The notes beneath the pieces are model-generated. The model made no database searches. It saw only the letters and a program-made list of their open reading frames with translations, and had not been told where the DNA came from. The position numbers and the translations under genes are program-made. This document shows positions 4,165 to 4,198 of a DNA stretch of 4,497 nt, piece by piece. The stretch is taken from IMG/VR virus record IMGVR_UViG_2648501230_000017; one strand, 5' to 3'. Source of the DNA: a virus (lineage: Duplodnaviria > Heunggongvirae > Uroviricota > Caudoviricetes). Position 1 is the first letter of the stretch. Every line of letters starts with the position of its first letter.

Positions 4165-4198
4165 TCCTTATGGACTTTGTTGTTTTAGTCCATAAGGA
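4165..4198. repeat. perfect 12-bp inverted repeat with 10-nt spacer (TCCTTATGGACT-TTGTTGTTTT-AGTCCATAAGGA)
   Basis: Arms 4165-4176 and 4187-4198 are exact reverse complements. No adjacent U-tract on either strand, so it is not a classical terminator; could be a protein-binding palindrome or an RNA stem-loop. Confidence 0.7.

Follow-up and report, generated by a model that had tools for sequence, protein, structure and literature searches.

Background

Stem-loops at the 3' ends of bacterial mRNAs can stabilise the message: they block PNPase and RNase II, and it is at such structures that transcripts terminated by Rho end after processing. Imperfect inverted repeats can also be made perfect by mutation alone, since quasi-palindrome correction, which proceeds by template switching between the two arms, is a known mutation process. 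Both systems, together with intrinsic terminators, which combine a G+C-rich stem and a short loop (3-8 nt) with a U-tract, bear on how a perfect inverted repeat at the end of a bacterial gene is to be read.

The gene concerned here is iraL, a prophage-borne paralogue of iraM in the IraM family. In uropathogenic Escherichia coli CFT073, iraL is c1429 (PMC4045071; PMC12890032), and its product acts as an anti-adaptor for RssB, by which RpoS is kept stable during log phase (Hryckowian et al. 2014, mBio, PMC4045071; PMC12890032). The paper on iraL covers the promoter and the transcription start site and mentions no 3' end, terminator or stem-loop (PMC4045071), and our literature searches returned neither a description of the iraL 3' end nor a 3'-end mapping for the gene. 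In this study we analyse a perfect inverted repeat located at the 3' end of an iraL copy, compare it with the homologous positions of other iraM-family genes, and weigh a stem-loop of the iraL mRNA against a neutral origin and against roles on the other strand or in the DNA itself.

Results and discussion

Geometry and folding of the inverted repeat

Positions 4165-4198 of the window (the whole stretch of DNA that was analysed, 4,497 nucleotides) are an exact inverted repeat, 12/12, made up of the arm TCCTTATGGACT (4165-4176), the spacer TTGTTGTTTT (4177-4186, 10 nt) and the arm AGTCCATAAGGA (4187-4198), and it does not extend past 12 bp because 4164 and 4199 are both C. A preliminary description of this DNA had noted such a palindrome with its 10-nt spacer, judged it improbable by chance and found no U-tract on either side, and all three statements are borne out. 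With loops of 3-30 nt allowed, it is the longest perfect local inverted repeat of the whole window. When the window was shuffled 300 times with a first-order Markov model, a single shuffle attained 12 bp. Folded with 10-nt flanks on each side (4155-4208), the minus-strand RNA reaches -17.5 kcal/mol (z -5.1) and the plus-strand RNA -22.1 kcal/mol (z -6.2). The sense tail for a minus-strand transcript, GUUUACUC, scores -2.85, with 4 U in 8 nt and GUUUAC directly 3' of the stem, and the plus-strand tail (CAUAUUUG / CAUAUUUGC) scores -2.16, the 39th percentile of random 15-mers, as against -4.33 and -5.77 for the two genuine terminators of the window, those of STnc100 and tR'. An Rfam scan of the whole window, with E up to 1, gave no match at 4165-4198.

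The palindrome does resemble an intrinsic terminator in its stem-loop of about -17 kcal/mol followed by GUUUAC, in its position between convergent genes and in the short A/T runs that flank it left and right, a trait of bidirectional terminators. It differs in its 10-nt loop and in having G-C in just 5 of its 12 pairs, so that neither the G+C-rich stem with a short loop nor the U-tract is present, and it is missing from the terminator scan of the window. We therefore rejected a canonical intrinsic terminator as the identity of the element.

The gene at the palindrome and its interruption

We conclude with high confidence that the palindrome forms the very end of iraL, read on the minus strand, and takes in the last 11 codons with the stop codon and 3 nt beyond. 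Window positions 3900-4400 share 100% DNA identity with many E. coli chromosomes, CFT073 among them, where the equivalent is a minus-strand gene of 111 codons, annotated as IraM anti-adapter, with the same palindrome at its end. The intact CFT073 protein scores 162 bits against NCBIfam NF007393 (IraM; cut-off 121) and the window fragment 95 bits over profile positions 38-113. The features around the palindrome are as follows.

3953-4142, plus strand: full-length gene of the sRNA STnc100 (Rfam RF02076, 132.4 bits, E 5e-30), convergent with iraL
4168-4400, minus strand: 3' fragment of iraL, residues about 35-111 and the stop codon, DNA 100% identical to CFT073 iraL (c1429)
4401-4497, no strand assigned: end of an IS3-family insertion sequence, TGGATTTGCCCC..., which interrupts iraL relative to the uninterrupted CFT073 locus

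Unlike the CFT073 gene, the window copy is cut at 4400/4401: homology to CFT073 stops at 4400, and the end of the IS element begins at 4401, after about iraL codon 34. The 97 bases from 4401 to 4497 match at 100% regions annotated 'IS3 family transposase' in many genomes, and we take the interrupting element to be IS2-like. Since the iraL homology ends where the IS begins, the open reading frame 4168-4437 is made up of the last 76 iraL codons fused to IS sequence, and its apparent GTG start falls within the IS element. The preliminary description was thus right that the palindrome overlaps the 3' end of this minus-strand frame, but the frame it called doubtful is a genuine fragment of iraL, as the match to NF007393 and the complete identity to CFT073 attest. 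The fragment has lost the 5' end and promoter and has no intact frame with a start codon of its own; with the 5' third and the promoter of iraL lost to the IS, the hairpin is a relic in the window. The 4400/4401 junction occurs in none of the complete E. coli genomes of our collection, in which the best matches stop at 4400. As the GTG of the frame lies inside the element, the IS might conceivably give rise to a fused IS-iraL' product or drive transcription outwards.

The window as a whole is the late-regulatory region of a lambdoid prophage. Matching genomes annotate the region with genes for DUF968, RusA, DUF1133 and a DNA methyltransferase, after which come a tRNA cluster, an ORF for DUF3927 and then STnc100. 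The intrinsic terminator of STnc100 was found by the terminator scan as a stem at 4112-4133 with a T-tract. The preliminary description had placed the palindrome immediately downstream of a cargo terminator; the terminator is there, and it is that of the sRNA (RF02076). A preprint of 2026 draws a connection between STnc100 and the PasD sRNAs found in Stx phages. An STnc100-type terminator motif also lies 3' of iraM-family genes in several other prophage contexts.

Three further observations concern the upstream part of the window. The segment 1363-1436 (plus strand) gives a weak isrK-like Rfam match (21.6 bits, below the gathering score) that ends in a strong terminator (stem about 1405-1441 and a T-run) just downstream of the DUF1133/Q-position gene; this segment probably represents the late operon's pR'-tR' leader. 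Between a tRNA with a CAT anticodon (3007-3082) and tRNA-Arg(TCT) (3180-3256) lies a degenerate tRNA-like sequence (3090-3163, plus strand; Rfam 22 bits, below threshold, and no ARAGORN call), at the equivalent position of which CFT073 has an intact tRNA-Arg. For a 117-aa ORF downstream of the tRNAs (3367-3720, plus strand), neither Pfam nor NCBIfam gave a match.

The predicted hairpin in the iraL transcript

In the sense strand the gene ends ...ATA TGT CCT TAT GGA CTA AAA CAA CAA AGT CCA TAA GGA..., so that the two arms and the loop fall on the following parts of the transcript.

4187-4198, minus strand: 5' arm of the sense hairpin, UCCUUAUGGACU; third base of Cys, Pro, Tyr, Gly and first two bases of Leu, within ICPYGL
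4177-4186, minus strand: loop, AAAACAACAA, 10 nt; last base of Leu and the codons for Lys-Gln-Gln
4165-4176, minus strand: 3' arm, AGUCCAUAAGGA; codons for Ser and Pro, stop codon UAA at 4168-4170 and the first 3 nt of the 3' UTR

The iraL mRNA would thus carry a 12-bp stem of about -17 kcal/mol closed by a 10-nt loop, in which the Cys-Pro-Tyr-Gly-Leu arm would pair with Ser-Pro-UAA and three untranslated bases. It is a stable sense-strand hairpin at the end of the coding sequence that spans the stop codon, and the C-terminal motif ICPYG, from which one arm is read, is invariant across the family in the protein alignment (A1). The terminator scan and the tail scores gave no canonical terminator after iraL. 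From +80 to +260 nt downstream of the gene, the sense strand is C-rich and G-poor (C/G ratio 1.3-3.0).

Copies of the palindrome and homology breakpoints

A copy census was made with a 48-nt probe centred on the palindrome in 5426 complete E. coli genomes, of which 1432 contain 1577 probe places in all, at most two per genome, every one under an IraM/IraL annotation and none outside iraL. A search for the arms that allowed up to 2 mismatches gave no further copy in the window, nor any in the 50 kb of CFT073 that surround iraL and include the prophage. With one or two places per genome, all under the IraM annotation, and no arm copies in that CFT073 region, the palindrome was rejected as a REP/BIME-like repeat. 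Phages that carry STnc100 but lack iraL lose homology to the window at about 4138, directly after the terminator, or at about 4090, and none of the related phages compared has a breakpoint inside 4165-4198.

These results bear on a site acting in the DNA, for which the preliminary description had suggested either the operator of a dimeric protein or a recombination site, proposing a search for further copies and a comparison of breakpoints. Perfect 12-bp arms with a 10-bp spacer would fit a dimer, and the distance from the palindrome, inside the iraL module, to the edge that a recombination or insertion hotspot might mark is about 26 bp. An operator, however, would here lie within a coding 3' end, far from any promoter, as the sole copy in the window and the 50-kb prophage region, and the natural copies are asymmetric in 30-56% of cases; for a recombination site, both breakpoints fall outside the palindrome. 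A DNA site of either kind is highly improbable and already largely refuted: no better conserved than its surroundings and with no extra copies, the palindrome fails as a special DNA site.

One sequence likeness remains to be mentioned. The 9-mer CTTATGGAC, which is part of one palindrome arm, also abuts the STnc100 terminator in phages without iraL, and this could be counted in favour of a DNA site at the module edge. It is invariant, however, and fused directly to the terminator tail in 120/120 viral contigs; since no intermediate form occurs among them, its homology with the arm is unsupported, and we rejected it as a junction remnant, regarding it either as a coincidence or as belonging to the tail of the terminator. 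In these phages (L197-L199, L201-L320) the STnc100 terminator is followed by CTTTCTTATGGAC and then by an oppositely oriented terminator (GCCCGCG...CGCGGGC and an A-run).

Variation among iraL copies

Scans of viral and metagenome contigs gave almost only near-identical iraL copies, useful for polymorphism and not for deep covariation, and a scan of genome contigs for iraL yielded 6 loci only. The polymorphism sample comprises 157 copies from viral and metagenome contigs, with 35 haplotypes over 350 nt, and contains four variants within the palindrome.

4189 A to G: 86/157 copies; synonymous (Gly); G.U in the sense RNA, a mismatch in the plus-strand RNA and in the DNA
4166 G to C: 20/157 copies; second pair broken, uncompensated
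4198 T to C: 2/157 copies; closing pair broken
4180 (loop site): 3/157 copies; no effect on pairing

Variable sites make up 3 of the 24 arm positions and 24 of the 316 positions elsewhere, so there is no deficit of variation in the arms, and the palindrome is not conserved beyond its surroundings within iraL, such conservation being one of the points by which the preliminary description had asked for its idea to be judged. The perfect form accounts for about 44% of the viral and metagenome sample and 70% of the copies in complete genomes, the symmetry of the DNA being broken in about 56% and 30% respectively. The iraL copies are at least 95% identical, and conservation therefore says little (see also PMC4045071).

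The commonest variant does distinguish between the strands. With 4189 A to G the sense hairpin is nearly unchanged (-16.1 vs -16.7 kcal/mol), while the plus-strand hairpin is weakened from -17.1 to -12.0 kcal/mol by an A.C mismatch, and to -8.2 kcal/mol in the double variant. This affects the possibility of a structure acting in the plus strand, either as a back-up terminator or insulator for STnc100 read-through or as an element that affects the processing or stability of the Q-antiterminated late transcript, which passes through here towards the lysis genes. The plus-strand fold is the stabler of the two when flanking pairs are included, and it lies 31 nt past the STnc100 terminator, between convergent genes. 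The form that weakens it is nevertheless the majority in the viral and metagenome sample, the tail CAUAUUUGC is a poor U-tract, and phages with STnc100 but without iraL have no such hairpin; we regard a plus-strand role as very unlikely.

Comparison with iraM-family relatives

The C-terminal extension KQxxP is common to three clades of the family, namely iraL and the clades represented by L011 and L194, and in more distant homologues the stop codon comes directly after ICPYGLK or ICPYGRK. Within the three clades the pairing differs widely, with 12/12 pairs in iraL, 7/12 (-4.8 kcal/mol) in L011, whose protein P0002 has 89% amino acid identity, and 9/12 (-7.0 kcal/mol) in L194, whose protein P0005 is 76% identical and whose gene adjoins stx2 in Stx phages. 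Further out, L012 has 5/12 and L193 7/12 pairs at the homologous positions, arm2 of these two having been aligned manually because MAFFT put it two columns off in the nucleotide alignment A2. With L011, L194 and the outgroups used for polarisation, the iraL branch has three derived changes in the arms: the Tyr codon went from TAC to TAT, and in the UTR arm UA/UU became GG. Each of the three makes a pair, and no pair is lost through them. In L193 the same C.A mismatch has been mended the opposite way, as C-G. In A2, which consists mostly of near-identical iraL rows and has the two misaligned rows, 75% of cells pair, a share that drops to 28-40% once the partner is shifted by 1-3 columns, and two pairs are changed on both sides.

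Pairing of the CPYG codons with the downstream 40 nt was also assessed by duplex energy against 1000 shuffles. The result is strongly significant for iraL only (z -6.6), and in the 14 other clades pairing is not clearly above the shuffles (individual p 0.04-0.84). The combined p of 0.02 rests on non-independent clades, and for this reason we claim no family-wide structure. Such a structure had been considered on account of K-12 iraM, in which GCCCAU...AUGGGC looked compensated through A-U/U-A and C-G/U-A swaps, and it was rejected, its p of 0.04 being weak and most of the 14 clades non-significant. K-12 iraM also has a palindrome, GCCCATATGGGC, that arises purely from the same Pro-Tyr-Gly codons. 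With 7/12 and 9/12 pairs in the sister clades and no significant pairing further out, the strong hairpin is recent and iraL-specific.

Two further observations were made on these relatives. A direct repeat AAATATGYCC brackets the iraM 3' end (L003, K-12, around 2640-2710; L012, around 2290-2350), the first copy falling within the codons for Ile-Cys-Pro and the second some 40 nt beyond, and it differs in parallel by clade, reading ATATGCCC/ATATGCTC in K-12 and ATATGTCC/ATATGTCC in L012. In Stx2 prophages, IraM-family genes (L010, 2503-2826; L194-L196) lie immediately downstream of stx2A/stx2B and upstream of a nanS-type esterase gene, on the opposite strand, which suggests that genes for RpoS-stabilising anti-adaptors are a frequent accessory feature of the Stx phage late region.

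A proposed stem-loop of the iraL mRNA or a neutral quasi-palindrome

Two readings of the palindrome are almost equally likely. The one we favour, though it falls just short of an even call, is that of a 3' stem-loop of the iraL mRNA, serving as an exonuclease barrier or a weak terminator. Because iraL has no canonical intrinsic terminator, its transcription probably continues into the antisense of STnc100 and is stopped by Rho. Termination by Rho downstream would be followed by 3'-to-5' exonucleases trimming the transcript back to stable hairpins. Of these, the palindrome would be the final obstacle ahead of the coding sequence, and through its GUUUAC tail it may double as a weak terminator. 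The likeness to described 3' stabilising stem-loops lies in a stable hairpin that ends a monocistronic mRNA lacking a canonical terminator, with a C-rich, G-poor stretch downstream that could serve Rho. The iraL stem, a candidate of this kind, differs from them in overlapping the coding sequence, in including the stop codon and in a pairing unconserved in the sister clades. Of the RNA ends that the preliminary description had thought such a stem-loop might guard, the 3' end is the one that fits, since the hairpin sits exactly at the sense 3' end of iraL and the frequent 4189 variant, which pairs as G.U, keeps the structure in the sense RNA only. Against it stands a stronger GC-rich hairpin, the antisense of the STnc100 terminator, which lies 30 nt further downstream and would therefore meet 3' exonucleases first. 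The uncompensated 4166 variants, the long loop, the weak U-tail and the lack of conserved pairing in sister clades likewise count against a selected role. That the hairpin forms in vivo and acts on the 3' end or the stability of the mRNA is something we infer.

The other reading, to which we give real but somewhat lesser weight, is that the palindrome is neutral and has no selected function, the repeat having been completed in the ancestor of iraL and spread with a nearly clonal cassette. The invariant Pro-Tyr-Gly codons (CCN TAY GGN) are intrinsically near-palindromic, as the K-12 iraM palindrome illustrates, and the ancestral 3' UTR already had UCCAUA, so that one synonymous transition and a clustered dinucleotide change would have sufficed. 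Complementarity climbs stepwise, from 5/12 in L012 through 7/12 in L011 and L193 and 9/12 in L194 to 12/12 in iraL. Templated mutation typically leaves adjacent double changes such as UA/UU to GG, and the dinucleotide may have arisen by template switching between the arms. The case resembles quasi-palindrome hotspots in having a repeat that is imperfect in relatives and perfect in one lineage, partly through a clustered dinucleotide change; it differs in that the fixed changes sit in both arms, so that one template switch cannot account for them and at least two events are needed, and template switching is here a putative mechanism. Within iraL, pair-breaking variants go uncompensated and the arms show no deficit of variation, and other family members dispense with the hairpin. 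It also speaks against neutrality that all three fixed changes on the iraL branch raise pairing, that the independent lineage L193 also mended the same mismatch, and that the frequent 4189 A to G is the sole substitution at its site that keeps the RNA pairing. The palindrome was picked for its perfection, however, and the three pair-creating changes therefore carry an ascertainment bias. Both readings share an origin in a near-palindrome, and under a 3' stem-loop of the iraL mRNA the strong stem would have been recently built in the iraL lineage from a CCN-UAY-GG coding arm facing UCCAUA in the 3' UTR.

A more ambitious form of the stem-loop reading would make the stop-codon hairpin a selected, iraL-specific post-transcriptional element that co-evolved with the KQQSP extension and sets mRNA stability or limits read-through into the STnc100 antisense. 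We consider this unlikely. If it were so, the hairpin would contribute to the log-phase expression of IraL that distinguishes iraL-carrying pathogens from K-12.

Conclusions

The hairpin at the 3' end of iraL is a previously undescribed feature, of an ordinary kind, on a known gene, and the finding is of little importance. Its main value is corrective: the ORF regarded as doubtful turns out to be a known gene into which an IS element has inserted, disrupting it, the neighbouring terminator is that of STnc100, and the palindrome is neither an operator nor a recombination site. IraL raises RpoS levels in uropathogenic E. coli and Shigella, and should the hairpin prove functional, our picture of how IraL is regulated would gain a minor post-transcriptional detail.
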